The notes under the pieces were generated by a model. The model was not told the DNA's origin, made no database searches, and saw only the letters and a list, made by a program, of their open reading frames with translations. A DNA stretch of 64,000 nucleotides from Clostridia bacterium (GTDB lineage Bacteria; Bacillota; Clostridia; Christensenellales; Borkfalkiaceae). How positions within the stretch are numbered: the first letter of the stretch is position 1; every line of letters starts with the position of its first letter. Shown here one piece after another: positions 6,463-62,903 of the stretch. The position numbers and the translations under genes were made by a program. The DNA is taken from NCBI GenBank assembly GCA_900767815.1, contig CAAGAM010000070.1:1315-65314 (forward strand), in the 5' to 3' direction.

Positions 6463-8519
6463 TGGCAAGGCTTATCGTGAAGTGGCGGTATATCAAGCCC
6501 GGCGCGCCCAAGCAAGGCGAGCATTACGTTGACTATATAGCAACGCGCGAGGGTGTGGAAATCGAGGACGAAAAGTGGAAGGACGAACCCGCCACGAAAG
6601 AACAGGAAAAGTTAGTTAATCGGCTTATAGCCGACTTTCCCGATTGTAAAGACAGTTTTGAGTATCAGGATTACGCGACGGCAAAGACGAAATATACGGC
6701 AACGACGTTTATTGATAAAGCGATAGAAGAAAACGTGGATCGGATAGGAAAGAAAGAAAACTATATCGGGTATATAGCGATGCGTCCGCGCGTTGAGAAG
6801 TCAGGCGCGCACGGATTGTTTTCTTATTCGGACGAGTCTATAAAACTATCTAAAGTAGCGAAAGAAGTCGGCAATCACGACGGCATTGTGTGGACGACGG
6901 TAATTTCGTTAAAACGCGAAGACGCGGAAAAACTCGGCTATGATAATTTGCCTGCTTGGAAAACACTTTTGCGGGCGAAGTCGCAGGATCTTGCAAACGC
7001 AATGGGCGTTCCTATAACGGATATGAAATGGTATGCGGCGTTTCATAACGAAAGCGGGCATCCGCACGTCCATCTCGTTTCGTATTCCATAGGCAAAGAG
7101 CCGTATATGACGAGACAAGGTCTTGAAAAGTTAAAAGCCGCTTACGCGCACGAGATATTCAAAAACGATTTATATGAGATTTACGAAAAACAGACGGAAT
7201 ATCGCGACGAGATTCGTACCGAGAGTAAAGAAAAAATAGCGGAGATTATTCGTGAGATAAACGGCAAAAAATACGAAAACGAAACGCTTGAACTAATGCT
7301 GAAAGCACTTGCCGAAAAACTGCAAAAATATAAAGGCAAGAAAGTTTACGGGTATTTGCCGAAAGAGGTCAAAAACCTTGTTAACGGTGTTATAGACGAA
7401 CTTATGCGGGATAACGACTTGCAAAAATTATACGAATTATGGTACGAACAGCGGGAGAACGTATTGAAAACTTATCGGGATAAAATGCCCGCAAGGTTGC
7501 CGCTTTCCGCAAACAAAGAATTCACGTCGGTGCGTAACGCGGTGATTGCCGAAGCGTTGAATTTGTCGTTTTCATCCACGCCCGTGATAGACGAAACACT
7601 CGCCGAACCGACGGATAAAGAAATAGAGAAAAGCGAGAAAAAATCGCGAAAGGACTATAAAACGGCATGGCAGTTTTACGATTGGGCAAAGGCTTGCGCG
7701 GATAAAAACGGCGAAGAATACAACCCCGAATTTGCTGTGAAATTATTTACGGAAGCGGCAAACGGCGGCATTACCGTGGCGAAATATAAACTCGGCAAAA
7801 TGCTTTTAAATGGCGATGGCGTGGAGAAAGATATACCGAAAGCGATCGAATGGTTGAAACAAGCGGCGGTGGAAGAAAACGAGTTCGCGGAATACGCGCT
7901 CGGCAGGCTTTTTCTGAAAGGTGAAGAGGTAGAAAAAGATGTTTTTGCGGCAGAAGAATATCTGTTAAAATCCGCAAGTCGCGGAAATAAATACGCGGCA
8001 TATTTGCTCGGAAAAGAGTATTTAAGCGGAGAAAATTTCGGGAAGGATGCTATGAAGGCTGTCGAGTATCTCGAACTTGCTGCGGAGAAAGATTTTGAAC
8101 CTGCGGAATATATTCTCGGTAAAGAATACTTGCGCGGAGAAAACTTTCCGAAAGACGTTCAAAAGGCAATCGATTATCTTAAACGCTCGGCAGAAAATGG
8201 TTTGAGTTTCGCCGAATACGAACTCGGTAAAATATATCTTTTCGGTAACGATATTCCAAAAGATACGGAAACTGCGTTGGAGTATCTGAAGTCCGCGGCG
8301 GCAAACGGAAACGAATACGCTCGAGCGTTGCTTATGCAAAGAGAATTGTTTCAAAAACAAAGCATAAATCTTGCTATAGGTCGATTATTCGCATATTTAG
8401 TTAAAGCATTGCAAGAAAAAACGGAAGCGGAACTCGACGCTAAAATAGCAAGAACGGACAGAAAACTCCGCCGTAAAATAGCGGAGAAAAAGCAGGCGCA
8501 AGGGCTGAAATTAGAATAG
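6462..8519 (+). CDS. conjugative relaxase (MobP/MobQ-like His-motif nuclease) fused to C-terminal Sel1-like repeat array
   Basis: The HNESGHPHVHLVSY histidine-triad motif and N-terminal relaxase-like region are present. The C-terminal ~250 aa contain six or more ~36-aa repeats of the A(E)YxLGxxYLxGExxxKDxxKAxEYL type (Sel1/TPR-like). Confidence 0.7.
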   Translation: MARLIVKWRYIKPGAPKQGEHYVDYIATREGVEIEDEKWKDEPATKEQEKLVNRLIADFPDCKDSFEYQDYATAKTKYTATTFIDKAIEENVDRIGKKENYIGYIAMRPRVEKSGAHGLFSYSDESIKLSKVAKEVGNHDGIVWTTVISLKREDAEKLGYDNLPAWKTLLRAKSQDLANAMGVPITDMKWYAAFHNESGHPHVHLVSYSIGKEPYMTRQGLEKLKAAYAHEIFKNDLYEIYEKQTEYRDEIRTESKEKIAEIIREINGKKYENETLELMLKALAEKLQKYKGKKVYGYLPKEVKNLVNGVIDELMRDNDLQKLYELWYEQRENVLKTYRDKMPARLPLSANKEFTSVRNAVIAEALNLSFSSTPVIDETLAEPTDKEIEKSEKKSRKDYKTAWQFYDWAKACADKNGEEYNPEFAVKLFTEAANGGITVAKYKLGKMLLNGDGVEKDIPKAIEWLKQAAVEENEFAEYALGRLFLKGEEVEKDVFAAEEYLLKSASRGNKYAAYLLGKEYLSGENFGKDAMKAVEYLELAAEKDFEPAEYILGKEYLRGENFPKDVQKAIDYLKRSAENGLSFAEYELGKIYLFGNDIPKDTETALEYLKSAAANGNEYARALLMQRELFQKQSINLAIGRLFAYLVKALQEKTEAELDAKIARTDRKLRRKIAEKKQAQGLKLE

Positions 8520-53797: not shown

Positions 53798-54038
53798 TCT
53801 CGAAACAATTGAATAAAAAACGAGTCTTTTACATTCTCTCTGCCGTCCGCTGAAACGGATAAGCAACAGAACAAAATGTTCGATCGATTCGGCGCAACCG
53901 AGTCGTGGCGAAAACAAGCAGAGAAAATAATGATACTTGCGTCCAGTCTCAGGTCGAGCGTTGAAGCGGAAGAAATTCCGTGAGCCGTCGCAACCAAAGA
54001 GGGCGTCCCGGCGAGAACCGCGGGGAGGTGAAATTCCT

Positions 54039-54134
54039 ATGAGAGTAAAGGCATACTCGGAAGACAACGTAAATTTTGAGAAAACGATTGATACAAGAGC
54101 CGATAAAAAGGCTTTTTTAGAAGCGATTGGCTGA
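54039..54134 (+). CDS. 31-codon ORF upstream of mazF-like toxin (possible degenerate or atypical antitoxin)
   Basis: A GGAGGTG RBS lies 8 nt before the ATG, and the ORF ends 38 nt before the toxin start. No RHH/MazE-like sequence recognised. Confidence 0.2.
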
Positions 54135-54172
54135 TTATTTCAATCAATCGCTATTACTTAACAGAGAGAATT

Positions 54173-54550
54173 ATGAAAGATATAAAAAGAAACGAAATCT
54201 ATTATGCGGATTTAAGTCCCGTAATAGGCAGCGAGCAGGGCGGCGTTCGCCCCGTACTCGTCATACAGAACGACGTGGGCAACAAATTCAGCCCCACAAC
54301 CATTGTGGCGGCGATAACGAGCAGACAAAATAAGGCAAAACTGCCTACGCATATAGAGATAGGCGAAGAGGTGTTTGAAAAAGATTCTGTGGTGCTGTTG
54401 GAACAAATACGCACGGTAGATAAAAGACGATTGAAAGAATACGTTGGTAAGTTAGATAACGGCACTATGGAGCGGGTAAACAAAGCTATTTCTATAAGTG
54501 TGGGCTTGATTGACAGTGTGGGAGAAAAAAATGACGGCAGAACAGGATAA
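54173..54550 (+). CDS. mazF: MazF/PemK/NdoA-family endoribonuclease toxin
   Basis: The stretch [42 protein letters not shown] is nearly identical to the conserved core of Bacillus EndoA (NdoA). Confidence 0.8.
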
Positions 54551-54745
54551 GAAAAACGCGGTATTCTATTACAGCGTAAATATGCTTCGACTATTATTAA
54601 GGGCAAAACTTTTGACCGAAGCAGAGTACAAAGAGATCGTAAAACTTTCCGCCGAACATTACGGCTGTGAAAAGATAATAGTCGATTGATTATAAAAAAC
54701 GTCGATATTCTACAAATTTTGTTTGCTTCGGATAGGCATTACGAG

Positions 54746-54806: not shown

Positions 54807-56201
54807 ATGATTTTTCAAGAAACGGAGACCATCGAATTAAAAAGAGTATTGAACGATAGTTTGCCAAAAGAAATAGATGCATTTTTGAACAGTTTCGATG
54901 GTAATATTTACATTGGAGTTGAAGATGACGGTACGATAATTGGTGTAGAAAATCTCGATGATGTTCAAAAGCGTATCGCGGATATTGTTACCACGCAAAT
55001 TTTGCCGAATCCGCAAGAATACGTTACGCTCGGAACGCAGTACGTTGATGGTAAAAACGTTGTAGTAATTTCCGTACGCAAAGGTAAATCGCTGTATTAT
55101 ATTAAAAAATACGGGAGAAGCGCAGCGGGATGCTTTATTCGTGTTGGAACAAGTTGCCGTAGTATGACAGAAGAACAAATCGAGCAAAGGTATATTGCAA
55201 CGCTGTCGATTCCTCGTAAAACAATGAAAGAAGAATTGAGTCCTCGTCAGGATTTAACTTTTAATCAATTTCAAGCATTACTAACGTTTAAAAATGTCCA
55301 TTACAACAAAGAAACATTTGAACAAAACTATAATTTACGCAACAGTGATGATAAGTTTAATTATATTGCCTTTTTAGTTTCGGATCAAAACGATACATCT
55401 ATAAAAGTTGTCAGATTTAATGGCGTAACAAAAGCGGAATTTCTGTCAAGAAAAGAATTCGATAACGGTTGCATATTTAAACAGATGGAAGATGCACTCG
55501 AATATTCGTTAAACGTTCTTAACATTATTCAGACGAATATTGTAGGGAAAGAAAGAGTGGATACTCCATATTTTAACTCAGAGGCCTTCCGAGAGGCTTG
55601 GTTTAATGCTGTATGTCATAATTTATGGGTTGAAAAAGTTCCGCCGGCAATTTATGGGTTTGATGATAGGGTCGAAATAATTTCGTATGGATTGCTGAAA
55701 GACGGGATGACGAAAGATGAGTTTTTTATGGGAATCAGCAACCCTGTTAATGAAGAATTTGCGAAAATATTTATGCAGTTACATTATATGGAACAATCCG
55801 GAAAGGGTGTGCCGACTGTCGTGGCTAAATACGGCAAAGAAGTGTATCATTTCGGGACATCGTTTATACAATGTATACTCCCGTATAACATAATAGACAA
55901 ACAAAAGCAGGAAAGATTATTAGGACGAAATGACCTGAATGGCACGATAAATGGCACGATAAATGGCACGATAAATGGCACGATAAATGGCACGATAAAT
56001 GGCACGATAAAACTATCTGAAACGGCTACAATTGTCTACGAATTAATGAAGAAAGACGTTAAAGTAACAAAATCTCAATTAAGCCAAAAAGCAGGAAAAA
56101 GCATAAGAACGATTAGTCGTGCGATCGATGAATTAAAGAATAACGGGTTATTATTAGGTCGGACTTCAAATAAAAATGGTGAATGGATATTAAGTAAATG
56201 A
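54807..56201 (+). CDS. AlbA_2 (Schlafen-like divergent AAA) + HATPase_c_4 + C-terminal winged-HTH protein (RecG-related putative DNA-binding ATPase)
   Basis: The N-terminal FQETETIELKRVLND..IYIGVEDDG matches the AlbA_2 signature, and a C-terminal HTH (KSQLSQKAGKSIRTISRAIDELK) follows. It contains an (NGTI)x6 repeat. Confidence 0.55.
   Translation: MIFQETETIELKRVLNDSLPKEIDAFLNSFDGNIYIGVEDDGTIIGVENLDDVQKRIADIVTTQILPNPQEYVTLGTQYVDGKNVVVISVRKGKSLYYIKKYGRSAAGCFIRVGTSCRSMTEEQIEQRYIATLSIPRKTMKEELSPRQDLTFNQFQALLTFKNVHYNKETFEQNYNLRNSDDKFNYIAFLVSDQNDTSIKVVRFNGVTKAEFLSRKEFDNGCIFKQMEDALEYSLNVLNIIQTNIVGKERVDTPYFNSEAFREAWFNAVCHNLWVEKVPPAIYGFDDRVEIISYGLLKDGMTKDEFFMGISNPVNEEFAKIFMQLHYMEQSGKGVPTVVAKYGKEVYHFGTSFIQCILPYNIIDKQKQERLLGRNDLNGTINGTINGTINGTINGTINGTIKLSETATIVYELMKKDVKVTKSQLSQKAGKSIRTISRAIDELKNNGLLLGRTSNKNGEWILSK
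55938..56009 (+). repeat. perfect in-frame tandem repeat, 6 x 12 bp (AATGGCACGATA)
   Basis: Six consecutive identical units encoding NGTINGTINGTINGTINGTINGTI, between the ATPase-like region and the C-terminal HTH. Confidence 0.8.
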
Positions 56202-56475: not shown

Positions 56476-56682
56476 ATGCAGATAACGGAAATTACGCCGA
56501 AAGCGCAGAGTGAAGAAAGAATACGGCTTGCGGCATACTGTCGTGTGTCAAGCGATTCCGAAGAACAACTTCATTCGCTCGCTTCGCAAATACGTTGGTA
56601 TAGCGATTACGGGAAAAGAAATCCTCAATATCAAATCGTTGACATTTACGCGGATGAAGAAATAATTTATGGGGAACAATAA
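56476..56682 (+). pseudogene. large serine recombinase N-terminal fragment (68 codons)
   Basis: RLAAYCRVSSDSEEQLHSLASQIRWY..DIYADEEI matches the catalytic Ser region of resolvase/large serine recombinases. It stops after 68 aa with no downstream continuation. Confidence 0.55.
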
Positions 56683-56869: not shown

Positions 56870-57688
56870 ATGAAAAACGAATTATACGTCAACGGAATAG
56901 ATGTAAAGTATAAAAGAATCAACAAGGATGACTATATATCGCTGACCGATTTGGCGCGATATGTAAATCCCGACGAGCCGAAAATTCCTATCCAAACTTG
57001 GATGAGGAATAAAGACGTCGTATCCTATCTCGGGTTGTGGGAACAGTTAAACAATCCGAATTTCAAAGGTCGCGAATTTACGACCTTTGAAAACAAATCC
57101 GGTGCGAACAGTTTTTATTTGTCTCCCGAAAAATGGGTAAACGAAACAAATGCGATAGGCATTATCGTAAAACGCGGTAATGGCGGCGGAACGTATGCGC
57201 ATAGAGATATTGCGTTTGAGTTTGCAAGCTGGCTGAGTCCGGAATTCAAATTATACCTTATAACCGAATTTCAAAGATTAAAAGCGCAGGAACAAAAAAC
57301 AACCGAATGGTCGGCAAAACGAGAGTTGGCAAAGGTGAACTACAGAATTCATACAGACGCGATAAAAGAAAATATTGTTCCGACGCTAACGGAAGCGCAG
57401 TTAAAATATGTGTATGCAGACGAAGCGGATCTGTTGAACGTCGCGTTATTCGGGAAAACGGCGGCGGAGTGGAGAAAGCAAAATCCTACGCTGAAAGGCA
57501 ATATCCGCGATTATGCGACGATTGAGCAGTTGCTTGTTATTGCCAATATGGAAAGTTACAATGCTATTTTAATTGAACAGAATGTATCGCAAGAGGAAAG
57601 ATTGAAGCAACTGAACAATATGGCAAAATCGCAATTGCGTGTGTTAGAGCAGAGCAATTCTAAACTTCTTACCGAAAATAGAAAATGA
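56870..57688 (+). CDS. KilA-N domain protein with C-terminal coiled coil
   Basis: N-terminal KilA-N-like region (LTDLARYV.., YAHRDIAFEFASWLSPEFKLYL), 272 aa. Phage/mobile-element-associated family. Confidence 0.55.
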   Translation: MKNELYVNGIDVKYKRINKDDYISLTDLARYVNPDEPKIPIQTWMRNKDVVSYLGLWEQLNNPNFKGREFTTFENKSGANSFYLSPEKWVNETNAIGIIVKRGNGGGTYAHRDIAFEFASWLSPEFKLYLITEFQRLKAQEQKTTEWSAKRELAKVNYRIHTDAIKENIVPTLTEAQLKYVYADEADLLNVALFGKTAAEWRKQNPTLKGNIRDYATIEQLLVIANMESYNAILIEQNVSQEERLKQLNNMAKSQLRVLEQSNSKLLTENRK

Positions 57689-57779
57689 TTTGGAATTTGA
57701 AAACGAGGGCTGTGTAAGCGCCTCGTTTTTTGTACCTGTAAAAAGATTAAATTTTCCACTTCGATATATGTGAATGAAC

Positions 57780-58136
57780 TCAAGCGTTTAATTCAGTGAA
57801 AGAAATTTCGCTTGCGGCAAGTCTCAAAAATATACCCGATAATTCTTGTTGCGTAAAGGATAAAGAAATGCCGTTGAGTTTCAGTGTAACCAGCATTGCG
57901 TGCGCGCCGATACGTTTGTTTCCGTCGATAAACGGGTGATTTTGCGTAAGTCCGCAGGCAAGCCTTACCGCTTTTTCGATTGTAGAGGGGAATAATTCGA
58001 CGGAGTTGTATGTCTGCAACGGCGATAGAAGAGCGGCTTGCAAAAGATTATCGTCGCGTATTCCGTCCGAGCCGCCCGTTGCCTTTATAAGTTCGCAATG
58101 TAAATAGTTTATCTGCTTATCTGAAAGCCAAATCAT
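57780..58136 (-). CDS. doc: Doc (death-on-curing) Fic-family toxin
   Basis: Doc-type Fic motif HPFIDGNKRIG. 118 aa. Its start codon overlaps the stop of the upstream DUF2779 gene. Confidence 0.7.
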   Translation of the reverse strand: MIWLSDKQINYLHCELIKATGGSDGIRDDNLLQAALLSPLQTYNSVELFPSTIEKAVRLACGLTQNHPFIDGNKRIGAHAMLVTLKLNGISLSFTQQELSGIFLRLAASEISFTELNA

Positions 58137-59722
58137 TTTGCAAGTTCCTTATAAGTTTCGATGTTTTGCTTGATAAGTTCTTCGGAAGCGTTTTTTACCA
58201 AATCGTCTGGCGCGGCGGTAATGTCGCTACCGTCGGCGATGTTTGCGACCCTTACGAGTTCCTGCCAGACTTTAACCATTGCAAATGTATCGAGTTCGCA
58301 GTATTTCAGTAAGTTTTTGCGTGCGATTTTCTGTTCTTCCGGCGGCATATCCTTTATAAGCGGGAAGATCGTCATAGCCTCGCCGCCGTTGTGGATTTCC
58401 TCCAAGTTGTGATAATCGAGCGCCGGATCGTCGGGAAAAATCGCCGGCAAAACGCTTTTTATCGAAAACGAACCGCCCATTGCTTTGTTGTAATATGCGC
58501 CTCTCTGGAACGGATCGAGCAGGTCTTTTACGTTGCGTTTTATATTCAGCAAATGCTTTGAAAGGTCGGGGAATTCTTCCGCAAGTTCTTTCAGTCTGCC
58601 GCACTCGAATTTTTTATTGTAGGCAAGCACACATACGTTTTCGGGAATATTTTCGCACAGGCTTTCTGCTATCGCGCGGCGCGGATCTTCTCCCGAAACG
58701 CCTAAAAATTCTTTGTGTGAAAGGCAGCTGTTTTCGCTCTCTATATAGTGCAAAGAGTACTGAAAAGGAATTTGCTCGTAAGGTTTCGCACCGTCGAAAG
58801 GCGGAATAATCTCTTGCATGGTTTCAAAATCAAGAAAGTAAAGAGGGTAGGAAAGCGTGTTCAAAAACTCGTCTATAAGTCGATTATCGACATAAGTTCC
58901 TCTGTCATTAAGCGCAAAATCGATCTGCCTCGATTGCAAAAAATTAAGCGAGGCGCGCTTTTGCAAATCTTCAAACGACACGATACCGTCTTTATAAAGT
59001 TGCCATTTTTTATTGCAACGATAAATTTCAAAAACGTTATGTTCGGGTAAGTGCTTTGAGCAGTATTTCCAATAGGCGCATTCATGAGATAAGGAGCATT
59101 GCTCGCCGATGTCGATATTCGGCTCTTTATCGCAACTTAAAAGATTTTCGGCGCTTGTAAGATTTCGTTCGACGACTTCGTACTCGTCGGCGATGAGATC
59201 TTTAACGTCGGTTATTTTGAACAAATTTTTAACGTCGATTTCGCCGCGGCGCACATATTCGTTGTTAATGCAAACAACGTAAGTCCCCGTCACTTTAACT
59301 CCGCATTTTTCGAGAACGTATTTTTGATAGGCAACATCCACGAGATAGTTATATTTAATGTTGGTTGCGCTTTTTACTTCGTAAATCGCGTATCCGCCGT
59401 TTTCTTTATGCAAAATATCCACGGCGCAATACAGCCCGTTATAATCGAACGACGCTTCGCAAATATTTTCTTCGCCGCGGGCGATACATTCGGCAGTTTT
59501 CCTCTTCATTTCGTCAAGGTTGAGTTTTCCGTCGGCGGAACAAGCGGTAACTTCGGTATAATCGCCGAATAAACCCATTGCAAGGTCACCGACCTCGTTT
59601 CCGCTCTTCATTCTGCCGAGCGCGCCCTCGTCGATTTCTTTTTCTTCGGGCTTGTATTTATCGAGCCAGACGATTTTAGGACATTGCCAGAACGAACAAT
59701 ATTTCGATTTTGAAAAATACAT
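58133..59722 (-). CDS. DUF2779-like protein (PD-(D/E)XK nuclease-like + DnaQ/RNaseH-like domain)
   Basis: D..EVK motif (CAVDIL..YEVKS) in the N-terminal half. LDFETMQ...YSLHY, resembling DEDD-exonuclease motif I, in the C-terminal half. Probable start at the second ATG (59722), preceded by GGGGA. Confidence 0.5.
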   Translation of the reverse strand: MYFSKSKYCSFWQCPKIVWLDKYKPEEKEIDEGALGRMKSGNEVGDLAMGLFGDYTEVTACSADGKLNLDEMKRKTAECIARGEENICEASFDYNGLYCAVDILHKENGGYAIYEVKSATNIKYNYLVDVAYQKYVLEKCGVKVTGTYVVCINNEYVRRGEIDVKNLFKITDVKDLIADEYEVVERNLTSAENLLSCDKEPNIDIGEQCSLSHECAYWKYCSKHLPEHNVFEIYRCNKKWQLYKDGIVSFEDLQKRASLNFLQSRQIDFALNDRGTYVDNRLIDEFLNTLSYPLYFLDFETMQEIIPPFDGAKPYEQIPFQYSLHYIESENSCLSHKEFLGVSGEDPRRAIAESLCENIPENVCVLAYNKKFECGRLKELAEEFPDLSKHLLNIKRNVKDLLDPFQRGAYYNKAMGGSFSIKSVLPAIFPDDPALDYHNLEEIHNGGEAMTIFPLIKDMPPEEQKIARKNLLKYCELDTFAMVKVWQELVRVANIADGSDITAAPDDLVKNASEELIKQNIETYKELAK

Positions 59723-59890
59723 AACGTTCCCCATCTTTTGTTTGATTTCGGCTATATTTTATCATATTTTATGGAAAATATCAACCGAAAAGCATTATAT
59801 AAAAGATTATGTACCGTTTTTAGGACTAAATTATTGCTAAAATCCAATCGTTATGATATAATATTAAAAAATCATAACGGAGAGAAAACA

Positions 59891-60910
59891 ATGACAGACA
59901 GCTTGGAAGCGAAGAAATTACTCATTATTCGCATAATGCAAATACTCGAATATTACAGCGACGTAAATCATCCGCTCACGCAAGAAGACATAATAAACAA
60001 ACTGTACGAAGATTACGGAATTGAAGCTGAACGAAAGGCTATAGGGCGGAATATCGCCCTTTTACAGGATATGTTCGAGCGCGAATCGATGAAAAAAACG
60101 GCAACGGCAATCGTTATAGAATCGGATAAGAGGAAGGGAACTTTTCTGGATAAACGGCTTTTTGAAGATTCCGAACTCCGTCTGTTGATAGACGGCGTTC
60201 TTGCGAGCAAACATATTTCGGAAAAGTATTCTAATGATTTAATAGAAAAACTCTCGGCACTGTCTAACAAGTATTTTAAGTCTAACATAAAGCACGTTTA
60301 TTCGGTTAAAGACTGGGACAAAACCGAGAATAAAGCGTTGTTTTATAATATTGCAATCGTTGACGAAGCGATAGAAAAATGCAGGCAGATAACCTTTGAT
60401 TACAATAAATACGGCGCGGATAAAAAACTTTACAAAACCTCATCGCACACGGCAAGCCCGTATCAGCTGATTTTACATAATCAGCATTATTATTTGGTTT
60501 TTTTAAGCGAGAAATGGAAAAATCTCGGACATTTCAGGCTGGATAAAATAACTAATATCGATATAACTGAAAAACCGCTTACGCCGCTTCGCAGCTTAAA
60601 GGGTTATGAAAACGGGCTCGATTATAGGAAATACGCTTCATCGCTACCGTATATGTTTACCGACAAAGTTGAAAGGATTACCTTTATTTGCGACGAGTGC
60701 GTTATCGATCAGGTGGTGGACTGGTTCGGAAAAAATATTGCCATATCCGATCTCGGTGGCGGAAAATACGAAGTTACGGTCACGGCAAGCCCTAACGCAA
60801 TGGAATACTGGGCTATGCAATATTTAAACTACGTAGAGATAAAAACGCCTGCAGAGCTTAGAGCAAGAATAAAAAATAATCTGCAAAAAGCAGAAGAAAA
60901 ATATAAATGA
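59891..60910 (+). CDS. WYL-domain transcriptional regulator (BrxR/CapW-like: wHTH + WYL + C-terminal extension)
   Basis: N-terminal HTH-like LLIIRIMQILEYYSD..LTQEDIINKL and WYL-like HYYLVFLSEKWKNLGHFRLDKI. Its stop overlaps the start of the DUF262 gene (ATGA). Confidence 0.6.
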   Translation: MTDSLEAKKLLIIRIMQILEYYSDVNHPLTQEDIINKLYEDYGIEAERKAIGRNIALLQDMFERESMKKTATAIVIESDKRKGTFLDKRLFEDSELRLLIDGVLASKHISEKYSNDLIEKLSALSNKYFKSNIKHVYSVKDWDKTENKALFYNIAIVDEAIEKCRQITFDYNKYGADKKLYKTSSHTASPYQLILHNQHYYLVFLSEKWKNLGHFRLDKITNIDITEKPLTPLRSLKGYENGLDYRKYASSLPYMFTDKVERITFICDECVIDQVVDWFGKNIAISDLGGGKYEVTVTASPNAMEYWAMQYLNYVEIKTPAELRARIKNNLQKAEEKYK

Positions 60911-62903
60911 AGGTAAGAAACATGGAAAGCAGCGTAAAATTATTACCAGTAAAAGAGTTGTTAGGAATGAATTTTTATATTCCGGAATATCAACGTGGAT
61001 ACCGTTGGGGAAAACAACAGGCTGTCGACTTGCTTGAGGATATATCAGCATTCGCAAATAAAATATCTGATGACAACGACGAAATTTATTGTATTCAACC
61101 ATTAGTTGTTTCAAAAAGGGAAAGTGATGAGGACATCTTAAAAAAGTGCAAGAAAGAAGATGCTACTCTTGAAGATATTAAAAAAGCAATAAAAGGCTCT
61201 TGGACCGTAGTTGACGGGCAACAGAGATTAACGACGATTTATATTCTTCTCCGGTGCTTAAATGAGGATAAATGCTATGAAATAGAATATGGTACAAGAA
61301 ATAAAAGTAAGGATTTTCTAACAAAAATTAACTCTGATTCTGACAACTCTGCCGGCGATAACATTGATTTTTACTATATGAAAGAAGTTTATTCTGCAAT
61401 AACCGGCTGGTTACAAAATAAATCAGATTCAAAAAATAATTTGCGCGCCGTTTTACTTAACAAAGTTAATTTTATATGGTATGACATCTCGGGTGAAGAT
61501 GAAATAGCCGTGTTTACTCGTTTGAATATAGGCAAAATTCCGCTAACCGATTCAGAATTGATTAAGGCGCTATTTTTGAATCGGACAAATTTTTGTTCAA
61601 AATTAAACGTGGAAGACAAATGGTTAGAGATCAAGCAGCATGATATTGCATCGGAATGGGATTGGATTGAGAATGCGTTGCAGAATGATGAATTTTGGGC
61701 ATTTTTACATGATGTAAATTATTCAAAACCTACCAGAATTGATTTCATATTAGATTTAATTAAAAATAAAAATAATGATAAATATAAATTATATAAGAAT
61801 GAAGAAGGCAAAAACAAAAAAGAAGCTCAATTATGTAATAAAGTACTGAAAGAAAAAATAGGGAACGACGAGCATGCGACGTTCCGTTATTTCAACGAAG
61901 CGTTTCTTTCTCGTCGAGAAATTGATAGCGACGAATGGCTTGATGAATTATGGAATAAAGTAAAAGATTATTACCAAGTGTTTAACGAATGGTATCAGGA
62001 TTATAGGCTTTATCACTATGTAGGGTATTTAACGACGATTGAAGGTGAGAAGTTTAACGTTTCTTCTTACGTAGATGAATGGAACAAAAAGACGAAAAGT
62101 GAATTTGTTCAGTATATAAAAAGTAAAATAGTTGAGTCGTTAAAATCAAAAAAATGGATGGAAAAGCTTCCTGATTGCAGATTTGATGAAGATGGTTCAC
62201 CTAACAAAACGGAAACGGTCGGTATTTTACTTCTCCATAACATAGAAACAATTATTCAACAAAATGATAAATTAGTGGCGGAATCAAAATATAATCTGCC
62301 TAACTTTTCAAAATTTCCGTTTCATTTGTATAAGCGGGAAAATGGCAAGTGGAGCATATCAGGCCGAATGCGGGGGATGATTTTAATAAAAAAGACTCCG
62401 ATAAGCTATATTTGTCTTTGGCGAGGCCGTACATAAATAACCAAAACCTGATTGATAAAATTGACAAATATTTAAGCACTAAGGATAAAAATGAAAGCGA
62501 AAACTTTAATGATATATTAGCTGAAATTTGGGAAAATGGCGGAGCATTGCCGGAGGAAGATAAAAATAAAATTTTTAACTTTGTGCTATTGGACGAATCG
62601 ACTAATAAAGAGTATGGAAATCAGATATTCACTGTTAAAAGGGCTTTTATAGCTAATAAGGAAAGAGGGCTGAAAATTCGTTACAGTTATGATAAAGGGG
62701 ACCTTGTAAAAAGCAAACCGATACCAGAAATAGCTTTTGTTCCGCCTTGCACAAAGAACGTTTTCTCAAAATTTTATACTACGGTTCCGTCAACAATGGT
62801 GAATTGGAATACGGAAGATGCTGAGGCTTACTGGAAGGATATGTGTGATAAATTAAAGTTTTATTTTGATGAGTTAGAAGTGAAAAAGGATGACAAACAA
62901 TGA
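60907..62903 (+). pseudogene. GmrSD-like type IV restriction endonuclease (DUF262 + DUF1524) split by a single-base frameshift
   Basis: ORF 60907-62436 carries DUF262 motifs (IPEYQRGYRWG, VVDGQQRLTTIYIL). ORF 62349-62903 in another frame carries the DUF1524 His-Me motif (EHIRPN...NFVLLDESTNKEYGN). The frames meet at the A4 tract GGGAAAATGG near 62336-62345. Confidence 0.6.

Follow-up and report, generated by a model that had tools for sequence, protein, structure and literature searches.

A Doc-family toxin gene coupled to a DUF2779 nuclease-like gene that ends in an antitoxin-derived tail in a gut Clostridia bacterium

We have analysed a stretch of 64,000 nucleotides (nt) from a Clostridia bacterium (assembly GCA_900767815.1, contig CAAGAM010000070.1), here called the window, in which a doc toxin gene lies directly downstream of a large gene of the DUF2779 family. 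The open reading frame (ORF) of this large gene occupies positions 58133..59722 of the minus strand and encodes 529 amino acids (aa) from the start MYFSKSKY, which is the one used by almost all DUF2779 homologs, or 533 aa from an upstream ATG. Its stop codon overlaps the start of doc, as an earlier note on this DNA had pointed out, in an ATGA tetranucleotide that is identical to the 4-bp overlap of the relB-doc pairs of relatives, while a Shine-Dalgarno-like (SD) sequence for doc, AAGGAA, is embedded in the last codons of the large gene and kept in all the fused loci aligned. Our findings make it likely that the locus represents a type II Doc module in which only the C-terminal, toxin-binding element of the antitoxin is left, as a graft at the end of the neighbouring DUF2779 gene.

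The extra sequence that carries this element is confined to very few members of the family. Among the 120 best of more than 7,700 DUF2779 homologs, nearly all measure about 495–498 aa and end in '..VWQELVRVSKN' or '...MVKVWQELVRVSKN', and about 34 additional residues, ending in 'IADGSDITAAPDDLVKNASEELIKQNIE[A/T]YKELAK', appeared only in the window protein and in P0001-4 and P0006, proteins of 529 aa that share 80–98% identity. The restriction of the tail to this clade rules out that it was ancestral to DUF2779. The nearest Docs in a classical arrangement (P0147 and P0137; 81–82% identical) are preceded by an 83-aa RelB of family PF04221, residues 2–53 of which match the ribbon-helix-helix (RHH) domain of DinJ (4q2u). 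BLASTP aligned tail residues 501–529 with RelB residues 55–83 end to end and without gaps, at 48–52% identity (E 6-8e-7); hence, the tail equals all of RelB past its DNA-binding domain. As far as these alignments tell, its nearest source is an antitoxin of the RelB/DinJ ribbon-helix-helix type, and not one of the Phd/YefM type.

A broader comparison was based on about 160 further Doc loci collected from metagenomes and IMG/VR (the IMG/VR scan with a single Doc query gave 6 loci and was repeated with an alignment), from each of which the ORF ending at the doc start was extracted. Almost all of these ORFs encode proteins of 60–100 aa, the representatives being assigned to Phd/YefM (17 of 55) and MazE/AbrB (14 of 55), with various RHH domains among the remainder. 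Doc antitoxins of the Phd/YefM, MazE/AbrB and RHH types have in common the C-terminal motif '..D[DE]DV..[IV]S..L[IM]..N...Y.[EV]LAK*'. A profile of the last 32 residues of 113 non-redundant Doc-upstream antitoxins, from which the fused clade was left out, was searched against 1,137 stop-to-stop six-frame segments of the window (82.6 k residues) and matched once, at the DUF2779 tail (E 7.5e-8, 28.6 bits; next best E 2.2), and among the 120 DUF2779 homologs it recognised only the 5 tailed ones. Judged by its sequence, the tail is a genuine C-terminal element of a Doc antitoxin, though its carrier is exceptional. In the AlphaFold2 (AF2) model, it consists of a linker (494–506) and a helix (507–528), with a predicted local distance difference test (pLDDT) score below 50 for most of residues 497–529, a picture that would be expected of an element that folds on binding.

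The absence of a small Phd/YefM-type ORF upstream of doc, also claimed by the earlier note, was borne out by two kinds of search. When RelB, P1 Phd, YefM and DinJ were compared by tblastn with the whole 64 kb, the sole significant match was the DUF2779 tail, over its last 29 codons (E 6e-5), a weak Phd-like match (E 0.08) being located 55 kb off at 2149-2274. Likewise, a Pfam scan of 96 ORFs of 40–140 aa within 44–64 kb detected no Phd/YefM, RelB, RHH or MazE/AbrB domain. The RHH part of RelB (residues 2–53) has no counterpart in the window, where only the equivalent of RelB 55–83 is present. The small upstream gene for a DNA-binding antitoxin that autoregulates the operon, as in a canonical type II toxin–antitoxin (TA) system, is thus missing, and what stands immediately upstream of the toxin, coupled to it by the ATGA overlap, is the C-terminal toxin-binding element of an antitoxin.

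The raw material of the fusion is found side by side in relatives. Loci L007 and L009 show the order relB-doc, a WYL gene on the opposite strand, and then a DUF2779 gene of 495/502 aa. Window positions 58182..57766, from the last 50 nt of relB through doc, are collinear with 4021..4437 of L007, and window positions 60910..58248 are separately collinear with the WYL and DUF2779 genes of the same locus. Since relB-doc adjoins the same WYL-DUF2779 pair in these relatives, the fusion appears to have arisen by local rearrangement, in the course of which the DNA-binding domain was lost. The nearest unfused relB-doc pairs (L012-L018, L096-L100) occur in phage-like contexts, together with genes for small terminase, HNH, DNA methylase, S-adenosylmethionine synthetase and primase, and on IMG/VR contigs. 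A phage or phage-plasmid was probably the source from which the lineage acquired the relB-doc cassette.

Every tailed gene with readable downstream DNA leads into doc or a doc remnant through the ATGA overlap (L001-5, L019-23, L092-95, L256-265, L268-9). The fusion was found at none of the 68 DUF2779 loci of a GTDB scan with one genome per species; a Doc was encoded within 6 kb at one of these loci (unrelated, and on the opposite strand), and a WYL relative within the same distance at 19. No large upstream partner of doc was seen among about 150 Doc loci, where a lone 813-aa ORF (L230) looked spurious and was excluded. The lack of pairing at the 68 loci and the small antitoxins at other Doc loci indicate that the DUF2779-Doc pairing is recent and narrow and not a conserved two-gene system. 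The fusion was encountered in one narrow group of gut bacteria only, and tail-less 495-aa DUF2779 alleles of about 90% identity, with no doc downstream, belong to the same 90% cluster.

Within the fused clade, the ratio of non-synonymous to synonymous substitution rates (dN/dS) between divergent pairs was 0.08–0.15 for the DUF2779 core, 0.06–0.18 for the tail and 0.11–0.16 for Doc, and purifying selection acts on the tail. The cores of L021 and L093 are all but identical (1 synonymous and no non-synonymous difference), yet their tails and Docs differ, with dS about 0.65–0.69, which indicates that tail and doc were swapped by recombination as one cassette. DUF2779 alleles are mosaic in other ways as well, as the tail-less P0263 (L266/L267) carries a central segment seemingly identical to the window protein, and the 3' cassette seems to be exchanged between alleles by homologous recombination. 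At L026, in a Clostridia metagenome-assembled genome from GTDB, the stop of a tail-less DUF2779 gene is followed in frame (7489-7545) by 'RKNASIELTIKQ', which resembles 'VKNASEELIKQ' of the tail, and then by a terminator and no doc; this very short stretch may be what is left of a former tail-doc cassette.

About ten fused haplotypes were available. The tail ORF is open in all five that have an intact Doc, including L019/L020, in which DUF2779 is frameshifted and a 228-aa tail-bearing ORF remains open. An intact Doc with a lost tail was seen in none of the sampled haplotypes, and this is, in a sample of only about ten, the asymmetry predicted for a toxin-antitoxin relationship. Lesions of Doc itself comprise a 4-bp insertion at about codon 48 (L002-5, four samples), an in-frame deletion of residues about 7–100 (L092), and a frameshift near codon 20 that is accompanied by deletion of DUF2779 residues 84–214, so that both genes are broken (L268/L269); in P0243 and P0253, stop-loss extends Doc to 155 aa. 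Taken together, the homology of the tail, its origin, the selection acting on it and its inheritance with doc strongly support the proposal of the earlier note that it serves as a fused antitoxin, a role in which it would neutralise Doc.

The Doc protein of the window matches Pfam Fic/DOC at 3.4e-15 and TIGR01550 DOC_P1 at 2.6e-12, with 47 bits against a cut-off of 38.65, and contains the Doc-type motif HxFx(D/N)(A/G)NKR as HPFIDGNKR; on the basis of this motif, kinase activity on EF-Tu and growth arrest are predicted. The earlier note was thus right about family and motif, but it overlooked that the gene is truncated. Compared with the 129-aa P0121, to which it is 97% identical, the window allele has undergone a TGG to TGA change at the nearly invariant W119, and the 10 ancestral codons (VHSHISKWKI) and the ancestral TAA are still legible past the new stop, the whole reading 'FTELNA*VHSHISKWKI*'. 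The 120 best Doc homologs range from 115 to 180 aa, nearly all of them 125–131 aa, and continue '..ELNAWVHSHISKWKI' where the window protein stops, and W119 and H123 were at least 90% conserved in an alignment of 40 Doc homologs. In the AF2 model of the 129-aa Doc, the last helix spans residues 113–122 with high confidence, so that a stop at position 119 removes half of it. The window Doc therefore falls short of full length, taken as about 125–131 aa with the last helix, and keeps the catalytic motif and five of the six helices.

The truncated 118-aa allele is real and common. The exact protein was read in at least 24 contigs (84 blocks in the index), without further decay, which rules out a sequencing error as the origin of the stop, and in all 10 places listed it lies directly behind the 529-aa tailed DUF2779 gene. 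As the identical Doc and tailed DUF2779 recur together across contigs, the arrangement is not an assembly artefact. Given the stop at a conserved tryptophan, the module of the window may be attenuated or disarmed.

The carrier is a typical DUF2779 protein up to its tail. It matches PF11074 at 4.9e-45, and this RNase H-like domain follows an N-terminal half that matches Cas4 in PADLOC (2.7e-8) and Cas_Cas4 in Pfam (2e-4). D102...E115-x-K117, D298-x-E300 and the cysteines C14, C209, C215 and C221 are conserved across 57 DUF2779 homologs. The core folds confidently in the AF2 model (pLDDT 89.7), and Foldseek retrieved Cas4, RecE and MGME1 for the N-terminal half, and also DinG and 3'hExo. These results agree with the published prediction, for a family that is still uncharacterised, of a Cas4-like PD-(D/E)XK nuclease joined to an RNase H-like 3'-5' exonuclease (PMC3985635, PMC13621843), and with the dual-nuclease nature proposed in the earlier note; nuclease activity is accordingly a prediction (PMC3985635, PMC13621843). 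The Pfam scan of the protein gave only DUF2779 and Cas4, and no Panacea (DUF4065) domain. In PADLOC there was no full-length system match, the DUF2779 protein matching only Cas4 models and the window Doc covering only the Fic part (positions about 204–289) of the 312–331-aa PDC-S23 models.

Table 1. Features of the doc locus and its control region in the window
Feature	Position	Strand	Basis or remark
Bidirectional terminator hairpin between doc and the convergent KilA-N gene	57700..57729		RNA fold -14.7 kcal/mol, z = -4.46, followed by a U-run
Premature stop TGA (57780-57782) in place of W119, with ancestral remainder	57747..57782	minus	Translation
doc toxin gene, truncated allele, 118 aa	57780..58136	minus	HPFIDGNKR intact; ORF ends at the premature TGA
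ATGA overlap of DUF2779-tail stop and doc start	58133..58136	minus	Sequence; translational coupling
Antitoxin-derived tail, residues 493-529, NIADGSDITAAPDDLVKNASEELIKQNIETYKELAK	58136..58246	minus	Disordered linker and helix; BLASTP, profile, AF2
AAGGAA, Shine-Dalgarno-like for doc, within tail codons K525-E526	58145..58150	minus	Sequence
DUF2779 core, residues 1-492	58247..59722	minus	Pfam and PADLOC matches, AF2, Foldseek
RNase H-like/DEDD exonuclease domain PF11074, C-terminal	about 58463-58840	minus	Pfam
Cas4-like PD-(D/E)XK nuclease domain, N-terminal	about 59054-59719	minus	Cas4 models
Promoter-like site TTGATA-17-TGnTAAAAT before DUF2779-tail/doc	59756..59784	minus	Consensus scan 10/12; consensus match only
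Divergent promoter-like site for the WYL gene	59834..59862	plus	Consensus scan
Perfect inverted repeat CGTTATGAT-N13-ATCATAACG, 9-nt arms	59849..59879	plus	Overlaps the -10 element of the WYL promoter-like site; candidate WYL operator
WYL/WCX-domain regulator, divergent	59891..60910	plus	Pfam WYL 1.3e-9, WCX 6.7e-5

Promoter-like sites point both ways in the intergenic region of about 170 nt that separates DUF2779 from the divergent WYL gene (Table 1), and a WYL relative is present in every fused locus that reaches far enough upstream. On the other side, the KilA-N gene (56870-57688), which is convergent with doc and accompanies it in most, not all, of the fused loci, matches the PADLOC candidate single-gene system PDC-S22 almost over its full length (E 1.2e-123). 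At 60907-62903, a GmrSD-like restriction gene is broken into two overlapping pieces, a GmrSD_N ORF of 509 aa (60907-62436) and a GmrSD_C fragment of 184 aa (62349-62903). Relatives at the same position are single ORFs of 648–685 aa in L001, L258 and L259 and similarly split, into 509 and 163 aa, in L257; the window gene is probably a frameshifted pseudogene. Further along, a 68-aa ORF (56476-56682) encodes an N-terminal remnant of a serine recombinase, with its Resolvase domain; L094 and L258 have full-length recombinases of 529–563 aa in this place. The neighbourhood past this stub varies contig by contig, which suggests a mobile or hot-spot islet. It includes a Schlafen/AlbA_2 - HATPase_c_4 - HTH protein (54807-56201) with a perfect (NGTI)x6 repeat arising from a 12-nt DNA repeat, possibly a slippage-prone tract, and, at 53937-54689, a toxin gene of the MazF/PemK type (54173-54550) with a small SHOCT_2 ORF (54510-54689) after it. 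No MazE recognisable by Pfam lies upstream of the MazF/PemK gene, and this region may be a second non-canonical toxin-antitoxin arrangement in the islet.

According to the graft that we favour, the rearrangement would have removed the ribbon-helix-helix DNA-binding domain of the antitoxin together with its promoter, and joined the last ~30 antitoxin codons and doc in frame to about codon 495 of DUF2779. The resulting 529-aa protein would combine a folded dual-nuclease core (Cas4-like/DEDD) and a disordered C-terminal tail, the latter folding into a helix on Doc and blocking the kinase that otherwise phosphorylates EF-Tu. Antitoxin C-termini are known to be disordered and to turn helical on the toxin, and Doc phosphorylates EF-Tu (PMC4803016); moreover, the Phd-C element was needed to neutralise Doc when carried by a Panacea protein and was sufficient when fused to SUMO (PMC10440598). 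By analogy with these proteins, the nuclease core would most likely be a carrier only. Translation of doc would be coupled to that of the tail through the ATGA overlap and the SD sequence inside the tail codons. With both the RHH repressor domain and the promoter of the TA pair lost, the module would depend on the DUF2779 promoter, probably under WYL control, in place of antitoxin autoregulation. As a consequence, expression of the 3' end of the nuclease gene would become obligatory wherever Doc is active.

Several observations weigh against this interpretation or qualify parts of it. Doc has been damaged independently in several fused haplotypes (the W119 stop, the frameshifts at about codons 20 and 48, and the loss of residues about 7–100), which could mean that the fused tail neutralises it imperfectly, or that the module is simply decaying. 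The embedded ribosome-binding site may be partly responsible for the low dN/dS of the last tail codons, and the source of the tail could be a Phd/YefM-type antitoxin, some Phd-type C-termini scoring equally well. When the profile of antitoxin C-termini was searched against the PDB, it found no solved structure, the best match (E 0.18) being an unrelated protein, and P1 Phd scored 1.4 bits with the tail profile, so that we do not claim homology to P1 Phd-C. Since the tail profile detects neither P1 Phd nor any solved structure, its mode of binding rests on analogy.

The repeated damage also invites the reading that the fusion was a neutral accident and that the Doc and tail of the window are functionless, with DUF2779 working as in thousands of tail-less relatives. 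W119 and H123, both nearly invariant, are missing from the window Doc along with half of its final helix, four independent lesions of Doc and two of DUF2779 have accumulated in about 10 fused haplotypes, both genes are broken in L268/L269, and L026 may hold the post-stop remnant of a lost tail. Nonetheless, dN/dS values of 0.06–0.18 for Doc and tail of intact copies, at dS 0.6–0.9, indicate that the pair has been maintained for long, the 118-aa allele retains most of its fold and its catalytic motif and recurs without additional decay, and every intact Doc is accompanied by its tail. We regard a decaying relic as a possible though doubtful account; it is plausible for the window copy alone, and is at odds with the long-term purifying selection on tail and Doc. 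It appears highly improbable that the tail is irrelevant and the antitoxin is supplied by another gene, whether KilA-N, which is convergent with doc, or a small ORF or RNA that escaped recognition. KilA-N adjoins doc in most fused loci, but in L019/L020 and L260 it is not beside doc, which speaks against it as the antitoxin, whereas the tail is always present; the 96 small ORFs contain no antitoxin family, and it is the tail that matches the antitoxin C-terminal profile.

The fusion might instead be adaptive. The DUF2779 nuclease could sense, for example, phage DNA ends, whereupon the tail would release Doc and translation would stop, under WYL control; the release might follow from substrate engagement or from proteolysis during phage attack or DNA damage, and the tail might also, or alternatively, act as a guard that makes frameshift or nonsense mutations of the nuclease lethal. 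The surroundings are suggestive in this respect, as GmrSD, the PDC-S22 KilA-N gene, SLFN/AlbA_2 and MazF make up a defence islet and WYL regulators stand beside many DUF2779 genes. Tail and Doc are under purifying selection, the unit persists over a dS of about 0.9–1.2 in the DUF2779 core (about 0.7–0.9 in the tail), and accessory antitoxin domains carrying Phd-C have been proposed as sensors (PMC10440598). However, the conserved co-occurrence expected of the uncharacterised nuclease-plus-Doc defence module that the earlier note had offered as an alternative did not materialise: pairing is absent from all 68 species-level DUF2779 loci and restricted to one narrow clade, about 150 other Doc loci have small antitoxins and no large partner, and tail-less DUF2779 alleles of about 90% identity coexist with the fused form. 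In addition, Doc has repeatedly been inactivated, the most frequently recovered allele being the truncated one, and tail and Doc persist in L019/L020 with a broken nuclease, which argues that the nuclease domains are dispensable for keeping the pair. We therefore consider both integrated defence and a sensing, triggering or guarding nuclease unlikely, and return to the graft onto a passive carrier as the preferred explanation.

The locus would provide a natural example of a carrier-independent antitoxin element, a property shown so far mainly by engineering, and the fusion is caught almost in the act, since unfused neighbours, the fused form, tail-less alleles and decaying forms coexist in gut metagenomes. 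It illustrates how a toxin-antitoxin pair may lose its self-regulation, gain the promoter of a host or defence-island gene and make part of an unrelated gene obligatory. Should the nuclease prove to have a sensing or guard role, this would be a previously undescribed coupling of toxin and enzyme. The locus is suited to testing carrier-independent neutralisation of Doc, as well as the gating of a toxin by an uncharacterised Cas4-like/DEDD nuclease. For annotation, it serves as a warning that 'orphan' toxins may have their antitoxin hidden as the tail of a large neighbouring protein.

Among known systems, the closest are the RelB/DinJ(RHH)-Doc pairs of related Clostridia and phages (L006-L018, L096-L100), whose Docs are 78–82% identical to that of the window and which share with it the C-terminal antitoxin segment ('..SSVSKELINQNMTAYKELAE' against '..KNASEELIKQNIETYKELAK'), the ATGA coupling and the SD sequence in the last antitoxin codons. 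Unlike them, the window has neither the 53-residue RHH domain for DNA binding and dimerisation nor the TA promoter, and a 495-aa nuclease-like protein acts as carrier; with the RHH domain gone, antitoxin autoregulation is impossible. The Phd-Doc system of phage P1 has the Doc kinase motif in common with the window, and its disordered antitoxin C-terminus turns helical on Doc (PMC4803016), a behaviour that we propose by analogy for the window tail; in contrast to P1, the window has no Phd/YefM domain, and its Doc is only distantly related to P1 Doc (E 3.9e-5). The members of the DUF2779/PF11074 solo family (e.g. MMSYN1_0389 and UU173) match the core over its full length and keep the catalytic and Fe-S cysteine residues, but typically have no C-terminal tail and no toxin gene downstream. 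As in the cis-fused toxin-antitoxins CapRel and EzeT, the antitoxin element is covalently part of a larger polypeptide, although there the partner is the cognate toxin, whereas in the window the partner is a third, unrelated enzyme and Doc stays a protein of its own. The locus fails the canonical definition on two counts, having no separate DNA-binding antitoxin and, in the window copy, no full-length toxin; in origin and logic, it is a Doc-family type II toxin-antitoxin module. The nearest functional parallel is PanA(Panacea)-Phd-C:Doc of Corynebacterium doosanense, together with the engineered SUMO-Phd-C, in which a globular carrier likewise bears a short linear Doc-neutralising element at its C-terminus (Ernits et al. 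2023, PMC10440598); the carrier of PanA-Phd-C does not itself touch the toxin, and the element was experimentally sufficient on an unrelated carrier (PMC10440598). The window locus differs in that its carrier is a Cas4-like/DEDD nuclease of the DUF2779 family, a widespread stand-alone protein, and in that its fusion is recent and limited to a narrow clade; it works like the PanA-type accessory-domain antitoxins but is not a member of that group.

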